Below are positions 21,838 through 62,520 of a DNA stretch of 64,000 nucleotides, in pieces. Location: contig JALCSB010000001.1 in assembly GCA_022653075.1 (NCBI GenBank), positions 128,327 to 192,326 on the forward strand, written 5' to 3'. The position numbers and the translations under genes are program-made. The stretch comes from Intestinimonas sp. (lineage in GTDB: Bacteria; Bacillota; Clostridia; Oscillospirales; Oscillospiraceae). The notes beneath the pieces were generated by a model, which did not search any database, had not been told where the DNA came from, and saw only the letters and a program-made list of their open reading frames with translations. Numbering within the stretch: position 1 is the first letter of the stretch; every line of letters starts with the position of its first letter.

Positions 21838-22047
21838 ATAGATGCAGCCCTCTTTTTGGTGCTGCTAATGAAAAAACGAATCAGAAGCCGCGCCTTAAAA
21901 AGGGTACGGCTTCTTTTTCATAGATCCAAAATTAAATAAAGGTCCCATGCCGGGTGACATTCTGAGCGGTTGTGTTCTTCGTAACGGAAAACACAGCCGC
22001 TTTTTTTGTTGCCCATTTTTAAGTTGAAACGAAATGGAGGAACGCAT

Positions 22048-22569: not shown

Positions 22570-22570
22570 G

Positions 22571-23152: not shown

Positions 23153-23190
23153 CGCGCGGCCCCTGCTTTTTACAAAGGGGGTGGTGATAT

Positions 23191-24168
23191 ATCAACAGCT
23201 TCATCAGTTGGATCGGCGGCAAAAAAGCGCTGCGAAAAGTTATTTACCGGTTTTTCCCCAAGGATTACGGCAGATACATTGAGGTATTCGGCGGTGGCGG
23301 TTGGGTTTTGTTCGGCAGAAAACCAAAGCGCGGAACAATGGAAGTCTACAACGATTTTAATTCCAATCTGACCAATCTTTTCTGCTGCTTGAAAAACCGC
23401 ACATGGGAATTTCTCCGATACCTTGGCTTCCTTCCCCTCAATTCAAGGGACGAGTTCCGCGTCCTGCGCAAATTCATCGAAAAGGAAGAATTCACACAGG
23501 AGTATCTCTCGGAAGAATTGGAGCTGGCTCAGCACAATCTGTCCCCTCCGGAATTTGAGGATATGAGGGAGCTGATGCTGGAAAACGCGAAAAAAAGCGA
23601 CGTGCGCCGCGCCGCCGCCTTTTACAAGCTCATCCGGTACAGTTACGGCAGCGGCTGCACATCCTACAGCTGTCAGCCGTGCGACATCCGGAAAACCTTC
23701 TTCCTCATATGGAAGGCTTCCCGCAGACTTGCGGACACGGTGGTGGAGAATAAAGACTTTGAGGCATTGATCCGGCAGTACGACCGGGACAATGCCTTTT
23801 TTTATTGCGATCCGCCCTATTACGAAACCGAGGGGCATTACGCGGTGGTATTCCGCAAGTCCGACCACGTGCGGCTCCGGGATACGCTGAAAAGCTGCCG
23901 GGGCAAGTGGATGGTATCCTACAACGACTGCGAGTACATCCGGAATCTCTACGCGGGATTCTATATTCTGTCCGTCACCCGCCTGAACAACCTTGCGCAG
24001 CGGTACGACGGCGGCTGTGAATATCCGGAAGTGATCATTACCAACTACGATCCCCGTGAGTGTCGGAATTCCGAGCCGATGCAGCTCAATCTTTTTAATT
24101 ATGAGAATGGAGATGATGAGGACGAATGGTATCGAGCGGATGAGATGGGCCAAAGACCTGATCTTTGA
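23191..24168 (+). CDS. Dam-family N6-adenine DNA methyltransferase (orphan), apparent ATC start
   Basis: DPPY catalytic motif (FFYCDPPYYETEG). The SAM-binding N-terminus INSFISWIGGKKAL...IEVFGGGGWVLF lies upstream of the first canonical start (TTG at 23308). The frame opens after the TGA at 23185..23187. Confidence 0.8.
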   Translation: MNSFISWIGGKKALRKVIYRFFPKDYGRYIEVFGGGGWVLFGRKPKRGTMEVYNDFNSNLTNLFCCLKNRTWEFLRYLGFLPLNSRDEFRVLRKFIEKEEFTQEYLSEELELAQHNLSPPEFEDMRELMLENAKKSDVRRAAAFYKLIRYSYGSGCTSYSCQPCDIRKTFFLIWKASRRLADTVVENKDFEALIRQYDRDNAFFYCDPPYYETEGHYAVVFRKSDHVRLRDTLKSCRGKWMVSYNDCEYIRNLYAGFYILSVTRLNNLAQRYDGGCEYPEVIITNYDPRECRNSEPMQLNLFNYENGDDEDEWYRADEMGQRPDL

Positions 24169-24526
24169 AAAGACAGGCGGCCTGCAGGAGATAGCCGTCG
24201 GCAGCCTGCACGGCGAGCCGTATATCCGCACTTCGGACAAGGCAACGGTCGGGTTGTATCTTTCCGTACCGCCCAACCGCGAAACCGGGCGGTATGACTG
24301 CCTGTTTAAAGGCTATCTTCGCACCTGCGGCGGCTACAACACAGCCGAACAAATGCAGGCACTTGCCGACGAGATGCAGAGTATCGCCAATCTGTTGAAC
24401 CAGCTTGAATCAGCAAAGATTTCGCTGACAGAAGATGAGCTGAACTCTTCCGCCGGAGAGCTGAAATCGGCAGAAGAACAACAAACACCCGCCCTGCAAA
24501 CGGGGCAAAAGGAGAAATTTATATGA
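24101..24526 (+). CDS. hypothetical protein
   Basis: ORF overlaps the end of the methylase gene. The start is uncertain (several in-frame ATGs between 24101 and 24140). Confidence 0.45.
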   Translation: MRMEMMRTNGIERMRWAKDLIFEKTGGLQEIAVGSLHGEPYIRTSDKATVGLYLSVPPNRETGRYDCLFKGYLRTCGGYNTAEQMQALADEMQSIANLLNQLESAKISLTEDELNSSAGELKSAEEQQTPALQTGQKEKFI

Positions 24527-24771
24527 AAATGAATGGTGCAGGCCCCTGCGAGCTTGACGATCTCGTTCTCCCGCGCTGCCTTCTGGAAGCGTCAGAGCTG
24601 GACGGAACCTGCGATCTGAAAATCCAGTGCGTTCCCGGAGCAATCATCATTGCCGCAGGCGATATGCCGGACGGCGTTCCCGAACCGCTGGCGGCTCTGT
24701 TCCGCGAGTTGGGGATCGGCGGCGCTGCCGTCCGGAGCGTTCTGTCGGAAGGAGGACCGCAAAATGAGTAA
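24523..24771 (+). CDS. hypothetical protein
   Basis: Start overlaps the upstream stop (ATGA coupling). No motif recognised. Confidence 0.45.
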   Translation: MKMNGAGPCELDDLVLPRCLLEASELDGTCDLKIQCVPGAIIIAAGDMPDGVPEPLAALFRELGIGGAAVRSVLSEGGPQNE

Positions 24772-25051
24772 TGGTAAACCCATGTACAAGCTGATCGATG
24801 GGAAAGGCCGCGTCCTGATTCCCAAAGAACTGCGTTCAGCCGCAGGCATGGATTACGGCGACATCGTGCGCCTTGGCGTTACGAACGGCAGAGTCAGTAT
24901 CCGAAAAATAGACATCATCGAAGTGGGAGATCAGTCTCCGGATGCGGTGGAAGCCTATGTCAGGGCGGCGTTTAAAACCATGCCGGACGATACCCGTCTG
25001 AGCCTTATCACCGATCTGACTGAGCTGCTGCGCCAGAAAAAGGAGGTGTGA
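24764..25051 (+). CDS. AbrB/MazE/SpoVT-type DNA-binding protein
   Basis: MSNGKPMYKLIDGKGRVLIPKELRSAAGMDYGDIV has the swapped-hairpin barrel signature (GRVxIPKELR). Confidence 0.7.
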   Translation: MSNGKPMYKLIDGKGRVLIPKELRSAAGMDYGDIVRLGVTNGRVSIRKIDIIEVGDQSPDAVEAYVRAAFKTMPDDTRLSLITDLTELLRQKKEV

Positions 25052-25054
25052 GCT

Positions 25055-25624
25055 TTGGAAGAAAAAGAGCGGTACAACGAAAACGACTGTGTGGAAACCG
25101 GTCTTTCCCGCTCCATCAGAGGTAAAGTCGTAGCTTTGAACCGTGAGGCGCTGCCGCCGCGCAGCCAAAATCAACTATATTACTGCCTCTGCGGGAATGG
25201 GGCCGGGGTCAATCCCACAGGCCGCGCTGTGTTCCTGGTATCCCTGCGTACCGGCGAATTTTCCCTGAAAAACCGCAATGAGGTTGTCGGCGTGCTGAAG
25301 CCAGAGCTACTGCCGGATCAGGCAAAACTTCAGCTTTCCCAAATCAGGCCGTTGGGAGCGCTGGATTTGAAGAATCATGAACCGAAGTACAGCGGCTACA
25401 GCTTTCTGCCGGATGGCCGATACGCGTCCGGTGTCTGGTTGTGCAGCGAACAGGAGGCGCTGGATTATGTGGAAGTGCAGAGGCCCTACCAGCATCGCAT
25501 CATGATCTGCGACCGGGAGGACTTCTGTGTGCTGGAAATGGAAAGCGGCAAGCTCCTGCACCCTTCTCAAAAAGAGCTGGAAACCTTCCGCAGTCCGCAG
25601 GACGGAGGAATGAATATGACTTGA
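25055..25624 (+). CDS. hypothetical ICE protein
   Basis: TTG start lies 8-10 nt after AAGGAGGTG. No motif recognised. Confidence 0.5.
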   Translation: MEEKERYNENDCVETGLSRSIRGKVVALNREALPPRSQNQLYYCLCGNGAGVNPTGRAVFLVSLRTGEFSLKNRNEVVGVLKPELLPDQAKLQLSQIRPLGALDLKNHEPKYSGYSFLPDGRYASGVWLCSEQEALDYVEVQRPYQHRIMICDREDFCVLEMESGKLLHPSQKELETFRSPQDGGMNMT

Positions 25625-25640
25625 GAGAGGAGGACGCGAT

Positions 25641-26189
25641 ATGCGCGGGATTCGAATGGAGAAGGACACGATCCTGTATTATGGGAATGCCGCAGGATAC
25701 GTTTCAAATGGCAAAGCCGTGGTCGATCCATTGTTTCAATCGAAAGAACTGCAGAATTTTCTCGACCGTCAGAAGGATGTGATCGAGGTGAAATGGGTAA
25801 ACGGTACCTTCGACCGTCTCATGAATGGGCAGCGGGATAACCGGGAAATCACTCCGCTGAAAAATGTTCGTATTTGGCAGCTCAAACCGGATGTGGATAT
25901 CCGGATGAAATTTATCGGCTACGACGAACTGCTGGAACACTTCGGCGAGCCGATTCCTGAAAATTATCAGGCAGCGTATGACGGGACTTTGAACACCAAT
26001 GATCTGGAAGAAATCTACGCCAAATTTAATGTGGAGCACCCGGAAGGATTCACCGGGCATTCCCTATCCATGTCGGATGTGGTGGAGCTTTACGACGAGG
26101 CCGAGAGCGAGTTTCACTATGTCGATCGCTTCGGCTTCAAACAGATCGGCTTCCAGCCTCCCGCCCAAACGCAGACCATGCGGCTATAA
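25641..26189 (+). CDS. YodL-like domain protein
   Basis: IWQLKPD...MKFIGYDEL...LEEIYAKFNVEHPEGFTGHSLSMSDVVELYD...HYVDRFGF matches the YodL pattern common in Firmicutes conjugative elements. Confidence 0.7.
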   Translation: MRGIRMEKDTILYYGNAAGYVSNGKAVVDPLFQSKELQNFLDRQKDVIEVKWVNGTFDRLMNGQRDNREITPLKNVRIWQLKPDVDIRMKFIGYDELLEHFGEPIPENYQAAYDGTLNTNDLEEIYAKFNVEHPEGFTGHSLSMSDVVELYDEAESEFHYVDRFGFKQIGFQPPAQTQTMRL

Positions 26190-26262: not shown

Positions 26263-26493
26263 ATGAAAAAGAGATTTCAGAAGGCTCAAAAGGCCCTTGT
26301 TGTCAAAATAATGACTGCCAAAGCCGCCCTTGCGGACCGTCGCGGCGAAGGCTTCATTGATACGGCCATTAAAATTTTGATGGCCGTGGTTATCGGTGCG
26401 CTCATCTTGGCGGGATTGTATGCCCTGTTCGGCGATACGATCCTGCCCACCCTGACGCAGCGCATCAAAGAAATGTTCAACTATGCGGGCTAA
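26263..26493 (+). CDS. Flp/Tad-type prepilin (major pilin candidate)
   Basis: 76 aa with a basic leader ending RRG, followed by EGFIDTAIKILMAVVIGALILAGL (hydrophobic helix). Lies directly upstream of an A24 prepilin peptidase gene. Confidence 0.65.
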   Translation: MKKRFQKAQKALVVKIMTAKAALADRRGEGFIDTAIKILMAVVIGALILAGLYALFGDTILPTLTQRIKEMFNYAG

Positions 26494-26989
26494 TTGCATG
26501 AGCTTTAGTAATTTTCCGGTGCCGCCGGTCCATGTACCGATTCCGCCGCCCGAAACCGTATTGCAAACGCTGCCGTGTGTACAGGCGGCGCTTTTTATTG
26601 TCTTTCTCGCCGCAGTGTCGGCACGGGATATCAAGACCCGGATAATTCCCGACTGGCTGCCCCTTTGCGTTACCCTGACGTCACTGCTGGATTTTCATCT
26701 GATAAACCTGTGGGGTGTCCTTGTCGGCCTGCTGTTCCTCCTTGTCAGCGTGCTGCTCGGAGGAATCGGCGGCGGGGACGTCAAGCTGATGCTGGCCGCC
26801 GGTCTGGTGCTTGGACTGCCCGGTGCCGCCGCAGCCGCCGTCATGGGGCTTGCGGCGATGGTGCTGTATTATCTCGTCAGCAAAATGGCTGCCCGTCTAC
26901 GCGGGAGGGAGGCTTCCAAGCGCCTTCCCCTCGCGCCTTTTCTGTCGGTCGGCTGTATCGCCGCCTATTTCATGACAAGGGAGGACTGA
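26483..26989 (+). CDS. A24-family prepilin peptidase (TadV/CpaA-like)
   Basis: Two catalytic Asp contexts, ARDIKTRIIPD and GGGDVKLM, in a polytopic membrane protein. Confidence 0.8.
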   Translation: MRANCMSFSNFPVPPVHVPIPPPETVLQTLPCVQAALFIVFLAAVSARDIKTRIIPDWLPLCVTLTSLLDFHLINLWGVLVGLLFLLVSVLLGGIGGGDVKLMLAAGLVLGLPGAAAAAVMGLAAMVLYYLVSKMAARLRGREASKRLPLAPFLSVGCIAAYFMTRED

Positions 26990-26993
26990 TTAT

Positions 26994-27821
26994 ATGAGCT
27001 TTTTCAAAAACAGAACCGTCATTGGTGTGATCTGCATTGTGCTTTCTCTGCTGATCTGCTTCGCGGTCACACCGCTTTTTAACGCGGAAATATCCCAGAA
27101 AACCAGCATTGTGCGCGTCGCCAAAGACATCAAGGCCGGGGATCAAATCACCAAGGACATGGTGCAGAGCGTTGAGGTGGGCGGCTACAATCTGCCGGAA
27201 AACGTGCTGAAAAGCAAAGACAGCGTCATTGGAAAATATGCCGCCGCAGATCTTTCCGTCGGGGACTATTTACTTCCCTCTAAGCTGTCCGATACGCCAT
27301 CTGCTGAGAACGCCTATCTCTACAGCCTGACCGGGGAAAAGCAGGCCATCTCCATTTCGGTAAAGACCTTTGCGGACGGGCTTTCCGGCAAGCTGATGGC
27401 CGGGGACATCGTCTCGGTGATCGCCCCGGATTACAAAAAGCAGGGCGCGACCGTCATCCCTTCGGAGCTGCAATATGTGGAGGTTATCGCCGTTACCGCA
27501 AGCACAGGCTATGACACGGATACGGAAACCAGCGATGAAAACTCGTCCGGGCAATCGTCGGATGATGAAAAGAGCCTGCCAAGCACGGTCACGCTTCTGG
27601 CCACTCTGGAGCAGAGCAAAATTCTCGCCATGCTGGAAGCGGACGGCACGATGCACCTGTCCCTCGTCTATCGCGGCGATAAGGAGAATGCCGACGAGTT
27701 TCTCGAGGCGCAGGACGACGCGCTGGCCAAGCTGTACCCGGAAGAATCCACAGGAGAAAAAACGGAAAGCGAGGCTTCTTCGGATACCGGCTCTTCCGCT
27801 ACGGGGCAGGGGGCCGATTAA
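26994..27821 (+). CDS. Flp pilus assembly protein CpaB/RcpC-like (SAF domain)
   Basis: N-terminal TM anchor, SAF-like segment (VRVAKDIKAGDQITKDMV) and CpaB-type beta domain, with an acidic Ser/Thr-rich tail. Confidence 0.7.
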   Translation: MSFFKNRTVIGVICIVLSLLICFAVTPLFNAEISQKTSIVRVAKDIKAGDQITKDMVQSVEVGGYNLPENVLKSKDSVIGKYAAADLSVGDYLLPSKLSDTPSAENAYLYSLTGEKQAISISVKTFADGLSGKLMAGDIVSVIAPDYKKQGATVIPSELQYVEVIAVTASTGYDTDTETSDENSSGQSSDDEKSLPSTVTLLATLEQSKILAMLEADGTMHLSLVYRGDKENADEFLEAQDDALAKLYPEESTGEKTESEASSDTGSSATGQGAD

Positions 27822-28631
27822 ATGCTGAATTTTATCAAAACCGGCATTTTCAGCCGCCAGACTGAAGAACCCGCGCCGGAGCCGGAAAGTAAAAATCAGG
27901 TGCTGGCCGTGTGGGGCAGCCCCGGTTCCGGCAAAACAACCGTGTCGGTCAAGCTGGCAAAGCATCTGGCCGACCAAAAAAAGAATGTGGCGCTGCTGCT
28001 GTGTGACATGACCGCGCCCATGCTGCCCTGCATTTGCCCGCCCTCGGACCTGGAATGTGAAAAATCTCTTGGTAGCATTCTGGCGGCAACCCATGTGACC
28101 GACTCTCTCATCCAGAACAACTGCGTCGTTCACAAGAAAATCAGCCATCTCACCCTCATTGGGATGAGGAAAGGCGAAAACGAATATACCTACCCGCCGT
28201 ACAGCGCGGCGCAGGCATCGGAACTGATCGACCATCTGCGGGACATCGCCCCGTATGTCGTCATTGATTGCGGCAGTTATATTGCAAACGACATTCTCTC
28301 GGCGGTATCCCTCATGGCAGCGGATTCCGTGCTTCGGCTGGTCAACTGCGATTTAAAATCCGTCAGCTACCTTTCCAGCCAGCTTCCCCTCCTGAAAGAC
28401 AAGAAATGGGACGCGGACAAACAGTACAAAGCGGCAAGCAATGTCAAAAGCAGCGAAGCCAGCGAGCATGTGGAACAGGTTCTGGGCAGCGTCGCGTTTC
28501 AGATTCCCCATTCCGAAGAGCTTTTCAATCAGTCCCTCGCCGGGGATCTGTTTCAGGAGCTGTATCTGAAAGACAGCCGGGGTTTCCGCAAAGAAATCAA
28601 GAAAATATCCATGGAGGTGTTTGGCGTATGA
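27822..28631 (+). CDS. ParA/MinD-like ATPase (TadZ/CpaE-like)
   Basis: Deviant Walker A VWGSPGSGKTTVS. Located between the cpaB-like and cpaF-like genes. Confidence 0.7.
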   Translation: MLNFIKTGIFSRQTEEPAPEPESKNQVLAVWGSPGSGKTTVSVKLAKHLADQKKNVALLLCDMTAPMLPCICPPSDLECEKSLGSILAATHVTDSLIQNNCVVHKKISHLTLIGMRKGENEYTYPPYSAAQASELIDHLRDIAPYVVIDCGSYIANDILSAVSLMAADSVLRLVNCDLKSVSYLSSQLPLLKDKKWDADKQYKAASNVKSSEASEHVEQVLGSVAFQIPHSEELFNQSLAGDLFQELYLKDSRGFRKEIKKISMEVFGV

Positions 28632-30031
28632 AGCTGTTAGAACGCGGGCCGATAAGCCCGGATACGCTCATGGAAACCAAGGCTCTGTGCACCCATGACC
28701 TGTTTTTCTCGCCGCAGGAGGACGCGCAGAATTTCGACTCGGTCCTGCGTCAGGTGCAGGAATACATCTCCGGCAAATATTCCACCCTCATCGTGGAAGG
28801 CGGCACCGGCGAGGTGAAGGCGCAGGTGAAACGGTACATCGCCAAATATGTGCAGGATAACCGCATCGCGGTCAAGGGCATGACCGGGGAGCAGCTCGTG
28901 GATGCCCTGTATACGGAAATGGCCGAGTTTTCCTTCCTCACCAAATACATCTTTGGCACCGGAATCGAGGAAATCGACATCAACAGCTGGCGGGATATTG
29001 AAATCCAGTACAGCGGCGGCAGGGACGAAAAGCTCGCGGAGCATTTCGACTCGCCGGAACACGCCGTTAACGTGGTGCGCCGGATGCTTCATGTGTCGGG
29101 CATGGTGCTGGACAACGCCAGTCCCGCCGTTCTCGGTCACCTCAGTAAAAACATCCGGATAGCCGCCATGAAAACCCCGCTGGTGGACGAGGACGTGGGC
29201 GTCGCGGCAAGCATTCGGATCGTCAATCCACAAAACATGCGGAAAGAGGACTTCATCAAGGAAGGTACGGCGACGGCTGAAATGCTGGATTTTCTTACCG
29301 AATGCGTGCACTACGGGATTTCCGTCTGCGTGGCCGGGGCCACCGGCTCCGGAAAAACCACCGTGGCAGGCTGGCTTCTGACCACCGTTCCGGATACGAA
29401 ACGGATCTTCACCATTGAAAGCGGCAGCCGGGAGCTTTCCCTCGTCCGGGAGAAAAACGGCAAGGTCCAAAACCGCGTTATACACACCATTACCCGCGAC
29501 AGCGAAAATGAGCGCCAGAGCATTGATCAGGATTTGCTCCTCGACATGGCGCTCCGCTTTAATCCGGAGGTCATCTGTGTTGGGGAAATGAGAAGCTCCG
29601 AAGCCTACGCCGCGCAGGAGGCCGCCCGCACCGGGCATACGGTGCTGACCACCATCCATTCCAATAGCTGCGAGGCCACCTACCGCCGCATGGCTACCCT
29701 GTGCAAGCGGAAATACGACATGGCCGACAACACTCTCATGGATTTGGTGACCGAGGCATTCCCCATTGTGGTCTTTACTAAACAGCTTGAGAACAAGCAG
29801 AGAAAAATGATGGAGATCATGGAATGCGAAATTCTGCCGGACGGTACCCGCAGCTTTCGCACTCTGTTTCATTACAATATCACGGAAAACAGGCTGGACG
29901 GGGACGAGTTTATCGTCAACGGTTATTATGAGCAGGTCAGCCGAATCTCCGACAGCCTGTGCAGGCGGTTTCTGGAAAACGGCATGCCGCAGGAAACCAT
30001 CAATCAATTCAGAAAAGGGGGCGTTGCTTGA
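28628..30031 (+). CDS. CpaF/TadA-family secretion ATPase (VirB11 superfamily)
   Basis: Walker A VAGATGSGKTT, Asp box, Walker B EVICVGEMR and His box TGHTVLTTIHS. The ATG at 28628 overlaps the upstream stop. Confidence 0.88.
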   Translation: MKLLERGPISPDTLMETKALCTHDLFFSPQEDAQNFDSVLRQVQEYISGKYSTLIVEGGTGEVKAQVKRYIAKYVQDNRIAVKGMTGEQLVDALYTEMAEFSFLTKYIFGTGIEEIDINSWRDIEIQYSGGRDEKLAEHFDSPEHAVNVVRRMLHVSGMVLDNASPAVLGHLSKNIRIAAMKTPLVDEDVGVAASIRIVNPQNMRKEDFIKEGTATAEMLDFLTECVHYGISVCVAGATGSGKTTVAGWLLTTVPDTKRIFTIESGSRELSLVREKNGKVQNRVIHTITRDSENERQSIDQDLLLDMALRFNPEVICVGEMRSSEAYAAQEAARTGHTVLTTIHSNSCEATYRRMATLCKRKYDMADNTLMDLVTEAFPIVVFTKQLENKQRKMMEIMECEILPDGTRSFRTLFHYNITENRLDGDEFIVNGYYEQVSRISDSLCRRFLENGMPQETINQFRKGGVA

Positions 30032-30960
30032 TGACATGGATACAACTGATTGCCTGCGCCGGAATGATTACCGGTTTTTTTCTTTTATTGCGTCTTTCCC
30101 CGATGGAGTTTACGAACGGGCTGTTCGGGTTTCTTCAGAACCACCCTAAAAGCATTCGGGAGGAAATCAACGAGGTGGCCCATCGGAAAAAGCCGTCTTT
30201 TTTTCGCAGGGAACTGATCGAGGCGAAGGACATTCTCGCCATGATCGGCAGAAGCAGCCGGTTCCCGACTGCCTGCGCCTGTTCGCTGTTGCTGTTTGCC
30301 ATCGGCGCGTCCATCGCCATTGTGATGGGCAACTTTCTCCTGGCTCCGGTGATGGCGGTGGGTTTTCTGTTCTTTCCCTTCTGGTACATCCGACTGACGG
30401 CGGGCCACTTTAAAAAGGATGTCGCCGCCGAACTGGAAACGGCGCTGTCCGTCATCACCACGGCCTACCTGAGAAACGAGGACATCTTGACGGCGGTGGA
30501 GGAAAACCTCCACTACCTGAACCCGCCCGTTCAAAACGTGTTTCGGGAGTTTTTGCTGCAGGTCAAAATGGTGAACCCCGATGTGGACGCGGCGCTGAAA
30601 AAGCTCCGTACCAGAATTGATAACGATGTGTTCCGGGAATGGTGCGATGCAGTGGCCGACTGCCAGTACGACCGGAGTCTGAAAAGCACGCTTACGCCCA
30701 TCGTTTCCAAGCTCAGCGACGTGAGGATCGTCAACGGCGAGTTGGACGCTCTCGCAGCGGAGCCGAGGAAGGAATTCATCGTCATGGTGGTATTCGTGAT
30801 CAGCAATATTCCGCTGATGTACGCTCTGAATAAGGACTGGTACGCCATCCTGATGCACACGGTGCCGGGGCAGATCATTCTGGCGGTGACCGCTGCCCTG
30901 ATCTTCCTGTCGACGGCCCGTGTGATCCGGCTGACCAAGCCTATCGAGTACCGGAGGTGA
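30031..30960 (+). CDS. type II secretion system F family protein (TadB-like)
   Basis: Membrane protein of TadB size and topology. Its start overlaps the cpaF stop (TGATG). Confidence 0.7.
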   Translation: MTWIQLIACAGMITGFFLLLRLSPMEFTNGLFGFLQNHPKSIREEINEVAHRKKPSFFRRELIEAKDILAMIGRSSRFPTACACSLLLFAIGASIAIVMGNFLLAPVMAVGFLFFPFWYIRLTAGHFKKDVAAELETALSVITTAYLRNEDILTAVEENLHYLNPPVQNVFREFLLQVKMVNPDVDAALKKLRTRIDNDVFREWCDAVADCQYDRSLKSTLTPIVSKLSDVRIVNGELDALAAEPRKEFIVMVVFVISNIPLMYALNKDWYAILMHTVPGQIILAVTAALIFLSTARVIRLTKPIEYRR

Positions 30961-30966
30961 CGTTGA

Positions 30967-31839
30967 ATGAAGGGATTACTCTTTTTATTTGGCGTTTTTC
31001 TGGCAGCGGGCCTTTTCCTGATCCTTTCCGATGCTTTAAAACTGCCCTATCTGCGCACGGCGAAGGCCATGTTGAATACCGGCAGGCGGGAGAAAAAAAC
31101 GGCGAAAACGCTGGAGGCGTATCTGCTTTCCGTCTCTGTGAAGCTCGCCCGATACGTCCGCATGGATGAGTACCGGAGGAACCGGATGCAAAGCGTCTTC
31201 AAGGCCGCCGGTATGAACCTGTCGCCGGAGGTGTACCAGACGTATGCCCTCGTCAAGGCCGGAGCGGTGCTTTTGCTTGCGATTCCCTGCCTGCTTTTCT
31301 TCCCGCTGCTGGTTCCCGTGGTGTTGTTTTTATCCATTATGGTCTATTTCAAGGAAAGCAGGCGGGCCGAGGAAAAGCTCGCGGCGAAACGGGAGAGCAT
31401 CGAAAGCGACCTTCCGAGATTCGTGGCCACCATCGAGCAGGAGCTGAAGAACAGCCGGGACGTGCTTTCCATTATTGAAAACTACAAGAAAAACGCGGGC
31501 GCGGACTTTGCCGATGAACTGGACGTTTTGGTCGCGGACATGCGCTCCTCCAGTTATGAGGCGGCGCTCACCCGTTTCGAGGCAAGGCTCAATTCTCCCA
31601 TGCTGTCCGACGTGGTGCGCGGGCTGATCGGCGTCCTTCGCGGGGACGACAGCGCTATGTATTTTCAGATGCTCTCCCATGATTTCAAGCAGATCGAGCT
31701 GCAGCGGCTCAAAAAAGAGGCGCAGAAAATCCCGCCCAAAATCCGTGCACTTTCGTTTGTGATGTTACTGTGTTTTCTGTTTACCTATCTCACCGTCATT
31801 GCCCTGCAGATCATGGATTCGCTTGGCAATCTGTTTTAA
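30967..31839 (+). CDS. type II secretion system F family protein (TadC-like)
   Basis: Second paralogous T2SS-F-like membrane protein directly downstream of the TadB-like gene. Confidence 0.7.
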   Translation: MKGLLFLFGVFLAAGLFLILSDALKLPYLRTAKAMLNTGRREKKTAKTLEAYLLSVSVKLARYVRMDEYRRNRMQSVFKAAGMNLSPEVYQTYALVKAGAVLLLAIPCLLFFPLLVPVVLFLSIMVYFKESRRAEEKLAAKRESIESDLPRFVATIEQELKNSRDVLSIIENYKKNAGADFADELDVLVADMRSSSYEAALTRFEARLNSPMLSDVVRGLIGVLRGDDSAMYFQMLSHDFKQIELQRLKKEAQKIPPKIRALSFVMLLCFLFTYLTVIALQIMDSLGNLF

Positions 31840-31860
31840 TGAAGAAGGAGGTCGTCCGTC

Positions 31861-31956
31861 ATGACGGAAAAAGAAATTCAAAAACAGCTCCAAAACTTCT
31901 ATGCCTGGGAGGAAGAGACACAGGGCGGCGGCGAAGAGGAGGTGCGAATGTGCTGA
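31861..31956 (+). CDS. 31-aa acidic micro-protein (MTEKEIQKQLQNFYAWEEETQGGGEEEVRMC)
   Basis: AAGGAGG lies 9 nt upstream of the ATG. The ORF overlaps the GTG start of the next gene. Below the ORF-track cutoff. Confidence 0.35.
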   Translation: MTEKEIQKQLQNFYAWEEETQGGGEEEVRMC

Positions 31957-32345
31957 AAGTATGGAGAAGCAGGCGGGGCGAGGGTTATGTGGATATCTGT
32001 GTTTTCGTGCTGTGCGCCATGCTGGTGCTGGCTCTGGCGGTCAAAGTGTTTCCGGTATTCATTGCCAAGAATCAGCTCGACACCTTTGCGACGGAGCTGT
32101 GCCGGGAAGCGGAAATCACCGGCTGCGTCGGCAGCGAAACCAGCCGCCGCGCCGCCGTTCTCCGGGAGCAGACCGGCCTCGATCCGGATATTTCGTGGTC
32201 AAAGACCGGGAATATCCAGCTCAACGAGGAAATCACGGTTACCGTCACGCTGCGGAAAAACCTTGGTCTGTTTGACAGCTTTGGTTCCTTTCCCATCACC
32301 CTGCGGGCGCAGGACAGCGGCAAAAGCGAGGTGTATCACAAATGA
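31950..32345 (+). CDS. minor prepilin-like protein (DUF4320/TadE-like)
   Basis: GTG start follows GAGGAGG. N-terminus VLKVWRSRRGEGYVDICVFVLCAMLVLALAV repeats the RRG-EG[FY][IV]D motif of the major pilin. Confidence 0.6.
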   Translation: MLKVWRSRRGEGYVDICVFVLCAMLVLALAVKVFPVFIAKNQLDTFATELCREAEITGCVGSETSRRAAVLREQTGLDPDISWSKTGNIQLNEEITVTVTLRKNLGLFDSFGSFPITLRAQDSGKSEVYHK

Positions 32346-32917
32346 AGAACAGCGTGACGCTGTATCGAATTCGCACAAGGTTCCGTCAGGTTTTAAGGGA
32401 TCGGCGCGGCACCGCCTTTCCTCTGGTGATCGCCCTTACGCTGGCACTGATGCTCATCCTGTGCGGCGTTACCGAGTATATGAGGCTGAACATTATCGCC
32501 TCCGGTGTTCGGGACGCGCTGGAATCCGGGATTATTACAACGGTCAACGACAACTACGCCAACGTCTATCACGGTGTCCGGGAAGGCTACAGCGGCGGGT
32601 ATCAGCCGAACGGCTCCGGTTTTGAGGAAGTGCTCGACTACGGCGATATCTACCGCTATCTTGATAAAATACTCGGCACGGAAAGCAGCGGAGGCAAGCA
32701 TGTGAAATATGCCGGGGATATTGTTGAGTACACACTCAGCGGTCTGTCCGTCAGCATTCGGAACGTGTCTCTCGCCCCTTCCAGCCCGGAAAACGCGCAG
32801 AAATTTGTCGCCGATGCCACAATTCGGCTGGAAGTGCCGGTTCGGTTCGGGGGCAAGGTTTTGCCGCCGATGTCCATTAATTTGAAAGTACAGGCGGGAT
32901 ATACAGAGGTATTCTGA
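32342..32917 (+). CDS. TadE/TadG-like minor pilin candidate
   Basis: The N-terminus has RDRRG followed by the hydrophobic helix TAFPLVIALTLALMLIL. The start overlaps the upstream stop. Confidence 0.55.
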   Translation: MKNSVTLYRIRTRFRQVLRDRRGTAFPLVIALTLALMLILCGVTEYMRLNIIASGVRDALESGIITTVNDNYANVYHGVREGYSGGYQPNGSGFEEVLDYGDIYRYLDKILGTESSGGKHVKYAGDIVEYTLSGLSVSIRNVSLAPSSPENAQKFVADATIRLEVPVRFGGKVLPPMSINLKVQAGYTEVF

Positions 32918-33009
32918 GATTGTCTCAAATATCTCTGGACTTGTGAAAAAATGTAGAGTATGTTGAAAATCAGAAAGAATAAAGCCTATCGGACAAGGAG
33001 GTTTTTACG

Positions 33010-33558
33010 ATGAAAGACAAAAAGAAAAGACTGCTGGTTGTGGCGGGCGGCGGCATCCTCGCGCTGGCGCTTATCCTTGCCATCGCGGGGCAGTTTCATA
33101 CAGATACCCCGGCAGAGGACGTCCTGTCCTCCTCCGGCGCGACCGATTCGAAGATATCCTCGGCACCAGAAGTGAATGTGCCGGAGCAGGACGAAAGCGC
33201 CGTTTCCGTCCTGCTGGAGGATATGGAATCCGAAGCATCGGCAAACTCAATGCCGCCGCAGACGGATCAGTCGGAACAGAGCATCCAGCCGGATGTGTCC
33301 AAGCCCGCAGCGCCGGAAAAACCGAAAGTGGATAACGATGCCGATATAACGAATCCGAAGCAGCCGCCGACCTACAGTCCGGAAAATACGGAAAAGGAAA
33401 CGGGGACGGAATCTTCAAAAAGCACTCCACAGGGCGGTGATACGCAGGACGGAAAAGTATATCTGCCTGGATTTGGATGGGTTACTGATACTGGAGGAAC
33501 TGGATCAACCGCCGATGATATGTATGAAAACGGCAATAAAATTGGGGAAATGAATTAA
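33010..33558 (+). CDS. membrane-anchored low-complexity protein
   Basis: N-terminal TM anchor, a long acidic/Pro/Ser-rich spacer and a conserved-looking C-terminus (KVYLPGFGWVTDTGG). Confidence 0.5.
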   Translation: MKDKKKRLLVVAGGGILALALILAIAGQFHTDTPAEDVLSSSGATDSKISSAPEVNVPEQDESAVSVLLEDMESEASANSMPPQTDQSEQSIQPDVSKPAAPEKPKVDNDADITNPKQPPTYSPENTEKETGTESSKSTPQGGDTQDGKVYLPGFGWVTDTGGTGSTADDMYENGNKIGEMN

Positions 33559-33625
33559 ACTCGTAATATTTCAGGGGACGCACGGTAAAATGCCGTGCGT
33601 TTTCTTTTGCAAAGGAGGCGACCCA

Positions 33626-35359
33626 ATGAAACGGTTATTCAGTGTTCTGCTGGCGCTTATCCTGCTGTGTTGCCCACTGTCGGCGATTCCGGCCTACGCC
33701 ATCGGCGACGGAAACGTGGACGGCGGTGGCGGCGGTATGGGAGATGGAACAAGCACCAACTCATGGACTCCCGGTAACGAGGGTGTGCGGGTTACGGTGA
33801 TTCGGGCCTCCGATCACGCAGTGGTCACCACGCCGATTGATTTGACAAACAAGAAACCTGACAATATCCAATCTCATTTTGGAAAAGTATGCAAATTATC
33901 TTACAACTCAGGTCAGGGACTCTCTCCTTCAAGTGCAAAATACAGTTATACGAATCCAGCGCAGGCTCTGCCAAAAATCATCAGCACCAACGGCACCAAC
34001 AACATTGCCGCCATCAAAAGCTATTTTACCGACGAACAGGTGATCCGCAGTATCGCGAACCTCACCGGCATGGATTTTGATGTATTGACAGACGGAGACT
34101 ACCGGTTGTTACTTGAACCCATTGCCTATTACAAATTTGAGGGCGTGATGATCGCCACCACCGCCACGGAAGCCGCGCTGTATGATAAGCAGGTCGGCGG
34201 CCTGCTCAGAAGCAGAATGGTGTCCCTGTCTCATAAGAACCTGCCGCTGGCCATGTTCTTGGAGGCGGCGGATCTCGGTTACCCCGCATGGTCAGGCAGC
34301 ACGACCACGGCGGCTTCCGACGCGGACATCATTTATTCTCTGGGTCTCGGAATCGTCCGGTTTAAGGACGTGGCGACGGAACCGCCAAACGTTTCCGCTT
34401 ACAATTATGAGTACCGGGTCAACACCGAGGTCATCACGTCGGTCACGGTCAGCGGCGGTCAAAGCGACCCGGATCATTCGGTAACGGTCACGTTCAACGT
34501 CGGCGGCAGAAGCATGCGGGTCAGCAACGTGTATTATCCGGAAGGCGACAGTCAGATTGCATGGATACGCTGGACAACGCCTTCCACGCCGCAGACCATG
34601 ACCATCCCCGTGACCGTGTCGGGAGGCGGCAGTACCAGAAGCGCAGCAATTACCGCCAAAATTGTGGATCTGTCCGGCAACGATCCGCCGAATCCCGTAG
34701 CCGACGACCGAAACGATTCCTATTCCACGCCGTCTGTCCCGAGTAAAGCGCAGAAAACCTCCGCTTCATGGAGTGTGTGGCGGCCTTGGTGGAAGGCGCA
34801 TTGGGTTTGGCACAGCGACTGGAACTGGTACGGTGACGGCAATGGCGGCGGCCATTGGGAGGATGACGGCGAATGGGTCGATGAGGGCTGGTGGGAATTT
34901 GACCTCAATCAGTACCGCGCAAGCCTTTCCGCTTCTATGAAAATACAGCCGGACGAGAAATCCCCGACTGCTTCGGGGAAAACCATGAAGTCCGGCTACG
35001 GAATCAACCAGACCGTGACCGCAAATGTCAGCACCAATCAGTCCTCGGCAGTGACCGGCGCGCAAAATGCCGTGACCTATTTCCCGGAATTCGGGTATCA
35101 GACTTACTGGCGGCTGCTGGAGTGTATGGGTTCCGGGTACAACTCCCAATTTGAGTTTCAAAAGAATCCGTACAGCACCTACGACCGCAGAACGCATTTC
35201 ACGCCGCTGTGGTTTCCTGACGGGAGCTACACGCCATATACATGGTTGATCGACTGCTGGACGCCGGATGGAATGCTCTCTATGAATCTCACTGATTCGG
35301 TAACCATCCGGGGAAATCTGTGGTCGGACTGGCACATCGCGGCGCAGAATCCGGATTAA
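33626..35359 (+). CDS. secreted protein with Gly-rich N-terminus and Trp-rich acidic segment (pilus- or surface-associated candidate)
   Basis: GGAGG RBS and a signal peptide (MKRLFSVLLALILLCCPLSAIPAYA). Last gene of the Tad-like block. Confidence 0.6.
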   Translation: MKRLFSVLLALILLCCPLSAIPAYAIGDGNVDGGGGGMGDGTSTNSWTPGNEGVRVTVIRASDHAVVTTPIDLTNKKPDNIQSHFGKVCKLSYNSGQGLSPSSAKYSYTNPAQALPKIISTNGTNNIAAIKSYFTDEQVIRSIANLTGMDFDVLTDGDYRLLLEPIAYYKFEGVMIATTATEAALYDKQVGGLLRSRMVSLSHKNLPLAMFLEAADLGYPAWSGSTTTAASDADIIYSLGLGIVRFKDVATEPPNVSAYNYEYRVNTEVITSVTVSGGQSDPDHSVTVTFNVGGRSMRVSNVYYPEGDSQIAWIRWTTPSTPQTMTIPVTVSGGGSTRSAAITAKIVDLSGNDPPNPVADDRNDSYSTPSVPSKAQKTSASWSVWRPWWKAHWVWHSDWNWYGDGNGGGHWEDDGEWVDEGWWEFDLNQYRASLSASMKIQPDEKSPTASGKTMKSGYGINQTVTANVSTNQSSAVTGAQNAVTYFPEFGYQTYWRLLECMGSGYNSQFEFQKNPYSTYDRRTHFTPLWFPDGSYTPYTWLIDCWTPDGMLSMNLTDSVTIRGNLWSDWHIAAQNPD

Positions 35360-35433: not shown

Positions 35434-35790
35434 ATGAAAGGTGAAAAAATGATGAAAATGAAGCGAATCCTGACCGTACTTTGCGTCGTTGTACTGCTGG
35501 TCTGTATGTTCAGCGTCACCGCTTATGCCGCTGGCAGCGGTGATGTCGCCGGAGCTGTGGAAGGCACATGGAAAACGGCATCGCAGCAGATTAAGACTGT
35601 TGTTAACAGCGTTGTCTTCCCCGCAATCGACCTGATTCTCGCCGTGTTTTTCTTCGCCAAACTCGGTACGGCTTATTTCGACTATAGAAAGCACGGGCAA
35701 TTTGAGTGGGCGGCCCCGGCAATTCTGTTCGCTTGCTTAGTGTTTACGCTGACGGCTCCACTGTACATTTGGAGCGTCGTAGGAATGTAG
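35434..35790 (+). CDS. VirB2/TrbC-like T4SS membrane protein
   Basis: Signal peptide ending AYA plus two hydrophobic helices, about 100 aa mature, lying directly before the VirB6-like gene region. Confidence 0.5.
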   Translation: MKGEKMMKMKRILTVLCVVVLLVCMFSVTAYAAGSGDVAGAVEGTWKTASQQIKTVVNSVVFPAIDLILAVFFFAKLGTAYFDYRKHGQFEWAAPAILFACLVFTLTAPLYIWSVVGM

Positions 35791-36962: not shown

Positions 36963-37865
36963 ATGTTCATATGGGACTTTGTCGCCGACACGGTCCTCGG
37001 TCAGATTGTGGAATGGATCTACAGCCAGATTGTGGGCTTTCTCGGCGATTTCTTTATGCAGATGGGCGACATGGGAGCCGATCTGTTCGAACTGCCGTGG
37101 GTGCAGTCCATCGTGCTGTTTTTCTCCTATCTCGCGTGGGCGCTGTACGGCGTCGGCCTTGTGGTGGCCTGCTTTGAGTGCGCCATCGAATATCAGTCCG
37201 GCAGGGGCAGCATCCGGGACACGGCGCTCAACGCCATCAAGGGCTTTATGGCCGTGGGCCTGTTCACGACAGTGCCGGTGGAGCTGTACAAACTGTCCGT
37301 GTCCCTGCAGGGAAGTTTTACGGCTGGCATTACCGGGCTTGGCACCGATTTCGGGACGGTTGCCGCCAATATCATTGACACGCTGAAAAACGCGGGCGAC
37401 GTGAATCAGGCCATGAGCAGCAATGTGTTCGGCGGGCTTACCGTCATCACGAGTCCGATTATGATGATATTTATTCTGATCCTCATGGGCTATGCGGTGA
37501 TTAAAGTGTTCTTTGCCAACCTGAAACGCGGCGGCATCCTGCTCATCCAGATTGCCGTGGGGAGCCTTTACATATTCTCTGTTCCGAGGGGTTACATCGA
37601 CGGTTTCGTGGGCTGGTGCAAGCAGGTCATCGGACTGTGCCTGACGGCCTTTTTGCAATCAACCATCCTCATCGCGGGCCTTATGGTGGTCAAAGATCAC
37701 GCCCTGCTCGGCCTGGGACTGATGCTGGCGGCGGGCGAAATTCCCCGGATCGCAGGACAGTTTGGGCTGGACACCAGCACCAAGTCAAACCTCATGGGAA
37801 CCGTTTATGCGGCTCAGACCGCCGTGAACATGACGCGCACCATTGTACAGGCGGTGGCGAAATGA
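36963..37865 (+). CDS. VirB6/TrbL-like T4SS channel protein (CD1112-type)
   Basis: Polytopic membrane protein of typical size, positioned before PrgI and VirB4. Confidence 0.65.
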   Translation: MFIWDFVADTVLGQIVEWIYSQIVGFLGDFFMQMGDMGADLFELPWVQSIVLFFSYLAWALYGVGLVVACFECAIEYQSGRGSIRDTALNAIKGFMAVGLFTTVPVELYKLSVSLQGSFTAGITGLGTDFGTVAANIIDTLKNAGDVNQAMSSNVFGGLTVITSPIMMIFILILMGYAVIKVFFANLKRGGILLIQIAVGSLYIFSVPRGYIDGFVGWCKQVIGLCLTAFLQSTILIAGLMVVKDHALLGLGLMLAAGEIPRIAGQFGLDTSTKSNLMGTVYAAQTAVNMTRTIVQAVAK

Positions 37866-40243: not shown

Positions 40244-40405
40244 ATTTATATTCCTCTTTAATTCAAAAAGTTTGTAATCAACATATTATATTGCGAATTT
40301 ATATACAACCATTATACCATGTTTTTCCTCAGATTTGTCCAAAGCCGTCACAGAAATGTGGCGGCTTTTCTATGTTCAGAAAAAATCAGAAAGGAAGCAT
40401 GCCTC

Positions 40406-43304: not shown

Positions 43305-43321
43305 GAAAAAGGAGGCTGATC

Positions 43322-43828: not shown

Positions 43829-43834
43829 TGCCCC

Positions 43835-49089: not shown

Positions 49090-49150
49090 TTTTGAGCGAT
49101 CAGCAGTGGTCGCTCTTTTTCTTTGCCCCAAACACAGAAAGGAGGCTGCC

Positions 49151-51924: not shown

Positions 51925-51932
51925 AAACGGAG

Positions 51933-62507: not shown

Positions 62508-62520
62508 GAGGCGTTCAACC

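Follow-up and report, generated by a model that had tools for sequence, protein, structure and literature searches.

Does the set of Tad/Flp-type pilus genes found inside a Gram-positive ICE of Intestinimonas sp. belong to the element's transfer machinery, or is it a passenger? In the 64,000-nucleotide stretch of DNA analysed here (the window), the pilus module occupies positions 26263-35359 as 12 tightly packed genes, all on the plus strand, as is every other feature for which coordinates are given below. An earlier sequence-only reading of the window had counted thirteen genes, but the genes it listed are real, lie at the positions and on the strand that it gave, and keep their assignments in profile and sequence comparisons. 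The intergenic distances are -11 to +21 nt through the tenth gene, and the final three are 92, 67 and 74 nt.

The first gene (26263..26493) encodes a 76-aa Flp-like prepilin of family DUF6133 (PF19629, E 1.2e-33) in which the basic leader varies, the motif G-E-x-[FY]-[VI]-D is conserved and a hydrophobic helix is present. Residues G28, E29 and D33 are nearly invariant in the DUF6133 pilin alignment, and cleavage is predicted after G28, with the D at +5; the mature pilin would then be ~48 aa long and mostly a single hydrophobic helix. The canonical Flp 'EY' motif is missing. The pilin gene is followed by that of an A24 prepilin peptidase of the TadV/CpaA type (26483..26989; PF01478, Peptidase_A24, E 2.2e-11), whose translation contains a D-containing IPD stretch and a GGGDVK motif and has no methyltransferase domain. 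Two minor pilin-like proteins are encoded further downstream: a DUF4320 protein with a GTG start (31950..32345; PF14208, E 5e-39), in which the RRGEG/YVD prepilin motif of the major pilin can be read, and a protein without a family match in profile searches (32342..32917) whose translation has a DRRG/TAFPLV leader and then a hydrophobic helix.

Between these lie the genes of the putative assembly machine. CpaB/RcpC (26994..27821) has an N-terminal membrane anchor, matches PF16976 (E 8e-16) and SAF, and passes the cut-off of TIGR03177 (79.8 bits, cut-off 71 bits). The TadZ-like P-loop ATPase of the ParA/MinD family (27822..28631; AAA_31, 1.5e-8; CbiA) is without the TadZ N-terminal domain and matches the MinD and ParA NCBIfam models below their cut-offs. 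The pilus motor, a CpaF/TadA-type secretion ATPase (28631..30031; T2SSE, E 6e-28), carries a Walker A sequence, GATGSGKTT, and a His box, and its best PDB sequence match is C. crescentus CpaF (8rkd, E 9.5e-19, residues 65-420), with VirB11 behind. Genes for ATPases of this module type have historically been annotated as VirB11, in LGI1 (below) and in pAW63/pXO-type plasmids. The two membrane proteins of ~300 aa that follow are weakly linked to T2SSF. The first (30031..30960) found no family match in profile searches and is called TadB-like, a putative platform subunit, from its position, size and polytopic topology; its profile aligns weakly with that of the second (hhalign E 0.026). The second, a TadC-like (T2SSF/GspF-like) platform protein (30967..31839), matches T2SSF below the cut-off in its C-terminal half (E 0.016), and its plasmid homologues give comparable sub-threshold matches to the same region of the profile. 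Its structural model (mean pLDDT 63) resembles the OutF cytoplasmic domain 5nbg in Foldseek (prob 0.99, TMt 0.71, rmsd 3.2 A), and its homologues are annotated 'secretion protein F', FlaJ or TadB.

The remaining gene between the platform and minor pilin genes is a 31-aa micro-ORF (31861..31956) whose stop overlaps the start of the DUF4320 gene. It is an in-frame, internally deleted remnant of an acidic protein of ~124 aa, whose full-length form (MTEKEIRKKLQ...EGVQMC) lies between the TadC-like and DUF4320 genes in related loci L002, L003, L004, L007, L016 and L054; the gap between these two genes is <100 nt in 34 of 72 loci.

Two surface proteins complete the module. The product of 33010..33558 is a DUF6550 protein (PF20187, E 7e-31) anchored in the membrane by its N terminus; its linker is acidic and of low complexity, and it has a C-terminal motif that is conserved. 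The last gene (33590..35359) encodes a secreted protein of 577-589 aa (start at 33590 or 33626) with a signal peptide, an Ig-like/CARDB-like beta-sandwich in its middle and a Trp-rich C-terminal part. It has no match in the Pfam copy searched, and the designation DUF8193/8194/8195 is taken from its homologues. The mean pLDDT of its model is 53, the N-terminal domain and the sandwich being mostly about 65-88, and Foldseek returns generic beta-sandwich domains (e.g. CARDB 3idu, TMt 0.62). We regard this protein as a candidate adhesin. A motif scan of all six frames of the window found no LPXTG adhesin.

The sequence-only reading had also placed the module within a Gram-positive ICE, with the VirB2-, VirB6- and VirB4-like genes immediately downstream, and this is correct. 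The first T4SS gene downstream encodes a small VirB2/TrbC-like membrane protein (35434..35790; DUF3852, PF12963, E 1.5e-48; TrbC 9e-5, below cut-off), and it is followed by the VirB6-like channel protein TrbL_5 (36963..37865; PF19511, E 2e-152), a VirB4-like ATPase (40319..42247; AAA_10, DUF87, P-loop_TraG) and, by Pfam, an Amidoligase_2 protein and an M23 peptidase (42270..44932), the latter likely the cell-wall hydrolase of the T4SS. Low-GC insertions are present between the T4SS genes in the Intestinimonas copy. Pfam matches further identify a MobL relaxase fused to Sel1 repeats, a DUF3991-Toprim primase-like protein and a VirD4 coupling protein (49106..53756), and three-frame translation reveals two serine recombinases with Resolvase domains (62097..64000), the small one at 62097-62507 and the large one beginning at 62769 and extending past the window end. 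On the other side of the module, 22006..26189 encodes a 187-aa protein, a DUF1281_C protein, a D12 N6-adenine methylase, an AbrB/MazE-like protein, a 189-aa protein and YodL (Pfam). This 22.0-26.2 kb block had been taken for accessory DNA, but it is conserved backbone: of 80 related genome loci, between 22 and 65, depending on the gene, have its genes in the same order and on the same strand, except for the DUF1281_C protein, for which tblastn found no match in those 80 loci.

Is the pilus module itself equally fixed? With the CpaF-type ATPase as query we collected 80 species-representative genomes (ATPase 70-98% identical), whose annotated hosts include Oscillospiraceae, Lachnospiraceae, Desulfitobacterium/Desulfosporosinus, Tissierella, Peptococcaceae and Paenibacillaceae; hosts that carry the module come from gut, sediment, bioreactors and food plants. 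All matches in these loci lie on one strand and in one order. Counting only loci in which the contig has room, the Tad genes are present in 66/68 to 76/76 by gene (TadB-like, 74/74; DUF4320, 72/72; the second pilin-like gene, 72/72), DUF6550 in 70/71 and the secreted-protein gene in 66/66, and DUF3852 follows the module in 63 of the 65 loci whose contig extends 7 kb or more beyond it. In the reverse survey, which used TrbL_5 as query (73-99% identity) against metagenome contigs, 51 of the 53 contigs that reach 4 kb or more upstream carried Tad-associated genes. The module thus has the same place, order and strand in 160 loci (80 genomes, 80 metagenome contigs) spread over many Firmicutes families, so that the Tad/T4SS co-occurrence whose survey had been proposed is family-wide. 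Sequence divergence follows this linkage in part: the identities of TadB, the secreted protein and CpaB correlate with that of TrbL_5 (Spearman 0.69, 0.68 and 0.58, respectively), and that of CpaF, which varies little, does not (-0.07).

The possibility that the operon is a distinct element nested in the ICE and bounded by ends of its own had been named as what would overturn the interpretation. The module has no recombinase of its own and no flanking repeats beyond chance matches, and because it lacks ends and holds the same position in 160 related loci the nested-element reading fails. Its description as an 'embedded' addition fails as well: throughout the ICE family the Tad module is a constant part of the backbone, neither cargo nor nested element. 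The true cargo of the Intestinimonas element (an ABC transporter, a two-component system and an MFS pump) is of a kind that varies by locus in the family (EmrE in Listeria) and occupies positions other than that of the Tad module.

The combination of Tad and T4SS genes in a Gram-positive element has been known since the 2010 description of Listeria genomic island 1 (LGI1) of L. monocytogenes 08-5578 by Gilmour et al., who reported cpa/tad genes for 'pilus-like surface appendages' beside virB4, virB6, virB11 and virD4, and LGI1-like regions in C. kluyveri, C. bolteae and D. hafniense (PMC2834635). The Intestinimonas element is an LGI1 relative. In L. monocytogenes CP007018 the order is the same: YodL, DUF6133, A24, RcpC, TadZ-like, T2SSE ATPase, two ~300-aa membrane proteins, DUF4320 and a pilin-like protein, then DUF6550, DUF8193-5, DUF3852, TrbL_5, DUF7768, VirB4, amidoligase, hydrolase and DUF6329; the secreted proteins of the two elements are 77% and the TadC-like proteins 74% identical. 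LGI1 and the Intestinimonas ICE also have in common serine recombinases, a Sel1-repeat protein, a primase-like gene adjoining virD4 (the LGI1 set of Sel1, dnaG and virD4 matches 49106..53756; PMC2834635) and MarR, efflux and two-component cargo. They differ in host (Listeria versus Clostridia), in pilin genes (two with spoVG between them in Listeria, one here), in the hydrolase (NlpC/P60 versus M23 at the same position), in cargo (EmrE versus the MFS pump and ABC transporter) and in the small acidic protein, which has shrunk to the micro-ORF in the Intestinimonas copy. A 2023 Listeria review still speaks only of a 'possible pilus-like outgrowth'. The earlier interpretation as a whole therefore survives in part: the gene identities, the ICE location and the absence of own ends stand, the add-on status does not, and the combination is not new.

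What kind of machine is this? Like the canonical Tad/Flp loci (A. actinomycetemcomitans tad, C. crescentus cpa and B. breve tad), the module combines in one operon a short prepilin, an A24 peptidase without methylase, a CpaF/TadA ATPase, two platform-like proteins, a ParA-like TadZ, CpaB and two pilin-like minor subunits. A secretin, TadD and RcpB are missing from it, as one would expect in a monoderm, and CpaB is present although reviews give RcpC as missing from monoderm models. It departs from canonical Tad in its pilin (G/E-x-[FY]-[VI]-D and DUF6133 versus G/XXXXEY and the Flp family), in its minor pilins (DUF4320 versus TadE), in platform proteins that fall under the T2SSF threshold and in being always T4SS-linked. 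We read it as an intact set of genes for a monoderm type IVc (Tad/Flp-like) pilus machine inside the conserved transfer region of an ICE family.

More distant modules (ATPase 24-51% identical, each with DUF4320) adjoin other Gram-positive T4SS types on plasmids, and on all six plasmids inspected DUF4320 genes accompany Tad-like modules. The T4SS is of the VirD4-CD1115/pLS20_p028 type in Terrisporobacter pTPHSE1 and C. difficile pCd5_2, of the Tcp type in B. cytotoxicus pCh25_53 (both types different from that of the ICE) and of the DUF3852/TrbL type in an Oscillospiraceae plasmid. CpaB, a ParA-like protein, the ATPase, two ~300-aa membrane proteins and DUF4320 form the common core in pTPHSE1, pCd5_2, pCh25_53, B. 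cereus pG9842_209 and Thermoanaerobacterium pMU3262; among these five, only the annotation of pTPHSE1 includes DUF6133 and A24, and that of pCd5_2 includes a prepilin peptidase. T4SS genes lie right beside the module in the first three, whereas on pG9842_209 there is no more than a replication-relaxation gene and one with a TraM-recognition domain, some 8-13 kb upstream, and on pMU3262 only FtsK/SpoIIIE-domain and replication-relaxation genes nearby. Linear plasmids of Cutibacterium acnes, likened here by gene content, also carry a tad locus adjoining VirB4, TcpC and FtsK-like genes (PMC5696575), in an actinobacterial host, on a plasmid and with different T4SS genes. Finally, C. estertheticum pCF016-18 (VirB4 50% identical) has DUF3852, TrbL, VirB4, the hydrolase and a HerA-like ATPase and no Tad genes, so that by gene content the pilus lies outside the minimal gene set of this T4SS type.

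What, then, might the pilus do? A role in mating-pair formation or stabilisation beside the T4SS is plausible, the linkage of the two gene sets supports it, and on balance we lean towards it for this ICE family. Counting against it are the Tad-less T4SS of pCF016-18, the weak tie of the platform proteins to T2SSF, the missing 'EY' motif, the nil correlation between CpaF and TrbL_5 and the fact that Tad pili elsewhere are mainly colonisation factors. The pilus could instead be a colonisation or biofilm factor that binds mucus, surfaces or other cells to the benefit of the host, with the ICE merely spreading it and no role in transfer. Tad pili do colonise in Bifidobacterium breve and many diderms (PMC6916266), Tad loci are, among type IV filament systems, those most often horizontally transferred and plasmid-borne (PMC6668835), and a T4SS of the same type exists without them in pCF016-18. 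We nevertheless consider this unlikely: the module is invariant and lies within the transfer region across varied habitats, whereas true cargo varies and sits elsewhere, and the same module type recurs beside three T4SS types on plasmids. On these co-occurrence data a mating role appears more likely than a purely colonising one.

A short pseudopilus or piston integral to the secretion channel, its ATPase the equivalent of VirB11, which would serve the T4SS by opening or crossing the thick peptidoglycan in the manner of Com or T2SS pseudopili, seems improbable. In its favour, the VirB11 NCBIfam model gives the ATPase 125.7 bits and the 'TadA family conjugal transfer-associated ATPase' model 117.6 bits (both below cut-off), the virB11 names of homologous genes (above) point the same way, and the mature pilin would be tiny, about 48 aa; but CpaF, not VirB11, is the closest solved relative of the ATPase, the pilus set is complete with peptidase, CpaB, TadZ-like protein and minor pilins, and pCF016-18 keeps the other T4SS genes without the module. 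DNA uptake or another non-mating task (competence-like import or export of the DUF8193-8195 protein, for example) is very improbable, for although natural transformation of Micrococcus luteus is reported to require Flp pili (PMC4322843), no ComEA-, ComEC- or DprA-like gene is present among the element ORFs scanned and the module's constant partner is a conjugative T4SS with relaxase and coupling protein.

If the pilus does act in mating, ICE induction would lead the donor to assemble a thin filament: the A24 peptidase would cleave the prepilins after the conserved Gly, and the subunits would be polymerised across the wall by the ATPase and platform, from a tip primed by the minor pilins. Binding to the recipient surface may fall to the secreted protein or to the minor pilins, and retraction (CpaF powers both extension and retraction of the Tad pilus; PMC6920026) or bundling may then draw the cells into wall-to-wall contact, after which the VirB4/VirB6/VirD4 T4SS, aided by the M23 hydrolase, would transfer the relaxase-bound DNA. 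Element-encoded type IV filaments that bind recipients and stabilise mating pairs besides a T4SS are found in IncI1 R64, where 12 further genes are needed for liquid mating and the thin pilus is a type IV pilus (PMC4027160), and in IncI2 TP114, whose type IV pilus is described as important for DNA transfer in the mouse gut (PMC9045228). The likeness is a functional analogy only, since those pili are type IVb with large pilins and a PilV adhesin and the ICE machine is type IVc-like in a monoderm host. In this ICE family the pilus would thus replace the sortase-anchored adhesins of pCF10-type systems and may work much as the accessory type IV pili of IncI plasmids do.

The module consists of twelve co-oriented genes on the plus strand (26263-35359), rather than the thirteen counted in the sequence-only reading, and all of the genes listed there are present and intact. 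The assignments that we regard as firm are those of the A24 peptidase, CpaB, the T2SSE-type ATPase and the DUF6133, DUF4320 and DUF6550 proteins. Tad/Flp systems have a short Flp-type prepilin whose class III signal peptide is cut after a glycine (G/XXXXEY). The 76 aa DUF6133 protein looks like such a prepilin in alignment, with a variable basic leader, an invariant or nearly invariant glycine (G28), an aspartate at +5 (D33), a single hydrophobic helix and the near-invariant motif G-E-x-[FY]-[VI]-D; cleavage at the predicted site would leave a mature protein of ~48 aa. In Pfam it matches DUF6133 and not the Flp family, and it lacks the EY motif that is the norm there. Two proteins encoded farther downstream, the DUF4320 protein and the one that follows it, also have prepilin-like N-termini (RRGEG/YVD, the same motif as in the DUF6133 protein, and DRRG/TAF, respectively); neither matches the TadE family, and we read them as putative minor pilins. 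The Listeria monocytogenes (L087, 1853-2725) and Terrisporobacter (L081, 2356-2885) relatives each carry two DUF6133 pilin genes, separated in Listeria by a spoVG-like gene, and in several Clostridia loci up to ~6 kb of additional DNA lies between the pilin and A24 genes.

The processing and motor components are clearer. The A24 aspartic prepilin peptidase (PF01478, E = 2.2e-11, above the cut-off) is 168 aa long, has a GGGD motif and no methyltransferase domain, and is thus of the TadV/CpaA type of Tad/Flp systems. The CpaB/RcpC component of such systems is present as well (TIGR03177, 79.8 bits against a 71-bit cut-off; PF16976, E = 8e-16). The TadZ-like protein has a ParA/MinD-type P-loop domain (AAA_31, 1.5e-8; CbiA), and no TadZ N-terminal domain was found in it, the CpaE-homologue model giving only E = 0.0038. 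The ATPase (T2SSE, E = 6e-28) is 100% identical to a protein of an Intestinimonas MAG, and its placement in the TadA/CpaF clade is by best solved relative rather than by a tree: this is CpaF (E = 9.5e-19 over ~355 residues), with archaeal GspE and VirB11 behind it. It does not qualify as a VirB11: its TIGR02788 score is 125.7 bits where the cut-off is 249.95, and the genes around it make up a full type IV filament set.

The sequence-only reading's gene assignments nearly all stand, and the two for which this is tentative, the platform proteins, are the weakest link of the module. Only the second of the two ~300 aa membrane proteins, the TadC-like one, matches T2SSF, with an E value of 0.016 that falls below the cut-off; its plasmid homologues give comparable sub-threshold scores, except for one (27071-27889 of the Thermoanaerobacterium plasmid pMU3262) that is above it at 5.8e-7. 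The TadB-like protein has no family match, and hhalign aligns it with the TadC-like protein at E = 0.026. A PDB search with sequence profiles of both proteins, plasmid homologues included, returned no match. Foldseek places the TadC-like model (mean pLDDT 63) with the GspF-family OutF domain at probability 0.99 and TMt 0.71, but with an E value of 0.47. A signal peptide is present in the large secreted protein, whose homologues contain DUF8193-8195; its poor model (pLDDT 53) includes an Ig-like/CARDB-like sandwich. Because these models are of low to moderate confidence, the fold matches are supportive only.

The micro-ORF at 31861-31956 retains both termini (MTEKEI... and ...EVRMC) of a ~124 aa acidic protein that is kept in other loci and is the remnant of an in-frame internal deletion in that protein, which rules it out as a pilin or regulator. 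Stop and start codons still overlap between it and the DUF4320 gene, which begins with GTG, and this suggests that translational coupling is being kept. Up to gene 10 the genes of the module overlap or are at most 21 nt apart, and the final three gaps are 92, 67 and 74 nt.

Where does the element that carries this module begin and end? Ordinary chromosomal genes (ClpB, Hsp33, 2-hydroxyacyl-CoA dehydratase, MutY, DJ-1 and a Na:Ala symporter) occupy the window from 1 to ~18.9 kb. Two minus-strand ORFs beyond them (18975-20765 and 20879-21514) have no family match and no counterpart in related loci, and so may be a separate islet. To their right a tRNA-Ser(GGA) gene (21651-21742), with a near-consensus promoter before it and a strong terminator after it (21564-21832 in all), is the immediate left-hand neighbour of the ICE's first conserved gene (22006), and we infer that the left end of the ICE is at ~21.85-22.0 kb, just past the tRNA gene. 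The conjugative element takes up the rest of the window from ~22.0 kb on, with nearly all of its genes on the plus strand: a leading conserved block (D12 methylase, AbrB/MazE-like protein and YodL); the Tad-like module; DUF3852 (VirB2/TrbC-like), TrbL_5 (VirB6-like), DUF7768, VirB4, an amidoligase and an M23 peptidase; a MobL relaxase fused to Sel1 repeats, DUF3991-Toprim and VirD4; cargo (an ABC transporter, a two-component system, and MarR with an MFS pump); and two serine recombinases in tandem (62097-64000). The smaller recombinase is 136 aa and the larger, which starts at 62769, runs for at least 410 aa before it leaves the window at 64000, so the right end of the ICE lies beyond the window.

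Several stretches of lower GC content interrupt this order. The DNA between DUF3852 and TrbL_5 at 35800-36950 (~40% versus ~54% GC) has a perfect-looking hairpin at its boundary (35800-35833) and a minus-strand 333 aa ORF with a weak DUF5677 match; the distance between these two genes varies from ~0.35 to 7 kb across related loci, which marks the gap as a hotspot for insertions. A second low-GC insert (39437-40243, minus strand) lies between a conserved 213 aa gene and VirB4, and its 268 aa ORF has no Pfam or PADLOC match and no counterpart in 80 related loci. PADLOC likewise found nothing among the inserted and flanking ORFs. The lowest GC of the element (35-42%) is at 46000-49100, just 5' of the relaxase gene; this region contains a minus-strand 280 aa ORF (47173-48015) and a 238 aa ORF (48373-49089), neither with a family match, and could house oriT or regulatory sequences.

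With the ATPase as query against one genome per species, we obtained 80 loci whose ATPases are 70-98% identical to it; the annotated hosts are Oscillospiraceae, Lachnospiraceae, Desulfosporosinus/Desulfitobacterium, Tissierella, Sedimentibacter, Peptococcaceae and others. All window proteins were compared with these loci by tblastn, and the matches follow a single order and share a single strand: methylase, AbrB-like, YodL, pilin, A24, CpaB, TadZ-like, ATPase, TadB-like, TadC-like, DUF4320, pilin-like, DUF6550, secreted protein, DUF3852, TrbL_5, DUF7768 and VirB4. Gene by gene, the Tad genes are found in 66/68 to 76/76 of the loci whose contigs are long enough. The co-occurrence of Tad and T4SS genes, for which the sequence-only reading had suggested a survey, holds from both directions: DUF3852 comes next in 63 of 65 loci, and when TrbL_5 was instead the query against metagenome contigs (73-99% identity), Tad-associated genes were present in 51 of the 53 with at least 4 kb upstream. 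Eight contigs have no ATPase in the flank; six of these still carry downstream module genes, five of the six with insertions that displace the remaining module beyond the 10-kb flank. TrbL_5 identity correlates with the identities of TadB, CpaB and the secreted protein (rho 0.58-0.69), and variable DNA enters at fixed gaps (pilin/A24, TadC/DUF4320 and DUF3852/TrbL_5) and otherwise not inside the module. A repeat search of 25-37 kb found short chance matches alone, and the module neither contains a recombinase nor is delimited by one. The nested element with its own ends that had been raised as a possibility is therefore rejected, the position being constant in 160 loci. From the order, presence, reverse test, co-variation and lack of its own ends we conclude that the module is a backbone component of this ICE family.

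That family is a known one. In its 2010 description, Listeria genomic island 1 (LGI1) spans 50 kb and carries serine recombinase genes, cpa/tad genes, virB4, virB5, virB6, virB11, virD4, a primase gene beside virD4 and a gene for a Sel1-repeat protein; it was likened to the proposed pXO1 secretion system, and similar regions were noted in C. kluyveri, C. bolteae and D. hafniense (Gilmour et al. 2010, PMC2834635). The L. monocytogenes locus in CP007018.1 (1.83-1.85 Mb), whose gene order is the same, maps where LGI1 was placed; it is collinear through the Tad-like module, DUF3852, TrbL_5, VirB4, hydrolase and DUF6329, and its secreted and TadC-like homologues are 74-77% identical to ours. Serine recombinases, relaxase, primase-like gene, VirD4 module and Sel1-repeat protein were all found here. 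The gene combination was therefore already published in 2010, the sequence-only reading's picture of a surprising embedded operon overstated its novelty, and the element joins the LGI1 family as a new member without adding a new kind of system. The LGI1 paper took the Sel1-repeat protein for a possible adhesin (PMC2834635), whereas here three Sel1 repeats form the C-terminal part of the MobL-family relaxase (49106-50950; MobL E = 1.3e-29). At the equivalent T4SS position the hydrolase is an M23 peptidase here (42270-44932) and NlpC/P60 in Listeria (L087, 18218-20855), a swap consistent with adaptation to host peptidoglycan. A 2023 Listeria review adds nothing functional on the LGI1 pilus genes, and the same functional question has already been raised for C. 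acnes plasmids (PMC5696575). Literature searches found no paper on DUF6133, DUF3852, DUF6550, TrbL_5 or DUF7768 and no functional study of Tad genes in Gram-positive ICEs.

More distant copies of the module, with ATPases 24-51% identical and a DUF4320 gene in each (DUF6133 is annotated in pTPHSE1 only), lie on plasmids beside other types of T4SS: the VirD4-CD1115/pLS20_p028 type in Terrisporobacter and C. difficile, the Tcp type in B. cytotoxicus and a DUF3852/TrbL type in Oscillospiraceae, with additional copies on B. cereus pG9842_209 and on pMU3262. The last has two separate DUF4320-type modules (L085, 13036-31287) as well as phage-like (Gam, dUTPase, HNH), FtsK-like and relaxase-like genes. 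On C. estertheticum pCF016-18, by contrast, DUF3852, TrbL and VirB4 (the last 50% identical) occur together while Tad genes are absent. Given these several partners and the Tad-less plasmid, the module is an accessory that has become joined to several Gram-positive T4SS types and lies outside the minimal set of genes that this type of T4SS needs.

What might such an accessory do? We lean modestly toward an ICE-encoded thin pilus with which the donor would grip a recipient and steady the mating pair, DNA then passing through the T4SS once the pair is formed. The obligate linkage of module and T4SS within the family favors this, as do its repeated joining to unrelated T4SS types, the two surface proteins constantly attached to it, and the lack of any sortase-type adhesin in the window by LPXTG motif scan. 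Precedents exist in IncI and TP114, and the CpaF motor is bifunctional. The likeness to the IncI type IVb thin pilus is functional only: that system has a PilQ-type ATPase, a large PilS pilin and PilV adhesins with a shufflon, whereas the ATPase here groups with CpaF, the pilin is Flp-sized, and no shufflon recombinase was found in or adjoining the module. Against a mating-pair role stand the Tad-less relative and the fact that Tad pili are usually colonisation factors. The latter would fit a pure colonisation factor, which we consider unlikely; the reading of the module as cargo is weakened by its constant place, true cargo in this family varying from locus to locus. A short pseudopilus that forms part of the channel itself, as a VirB11 reading of the ATPase would have it, is somewhat less probable again, given that ATPase's CpaF-like affinities and the Tad-less T4SS of pCF016-18. 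DNA uptake or some other function seems very improbable.

Gram-positive conjugation is, in its standard description, pilus-free. A survey of T4SS classes detected no T4SS pilins in MPF_FATA and remarked that certain Firmicutes systems are believed to have no pili, and reviews of Gram-positive T4SSs state that pilins are not found and adhesins are used instead (PMC4027160). It is conceivable, at somewhat less than even chances, that a retractile Tad-like (type IVc) pilus serves a large fraction of the conjugative elements of Firmicutes as their regular organelle for mating-pair formation (LGI1-family ICEs, pLS20_p028/CD1115-type Peptostreptococcaceae plasmids and Tcp-type B. cereus group plasmids), recruited repeatedly by unrelated T4SS types. 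If true, conjugation in many Gram-positives would be pilus-assisted, against the textbook "adhesin only, no pilus". The functional idea of the sequence-only reading is reasonable and testable, and since tractable hosts carry close relatives the question is directly answerable. The ICE family, with its complete and near-constant Tad-like pilus gene set inside the transfer region, is widespread in gut Clostridia, in environmental Firmicutes and in a Listeria monocytogenes clone that caused an outbreak. Capture of recipients by the pilus, if it occurs, would account for efficient transfer in habitats that are liquid or flowing, the gut among them, would be one determinant of host range for elements that spread efflux and resistance genes, and would offer a target for blocking their transfer.
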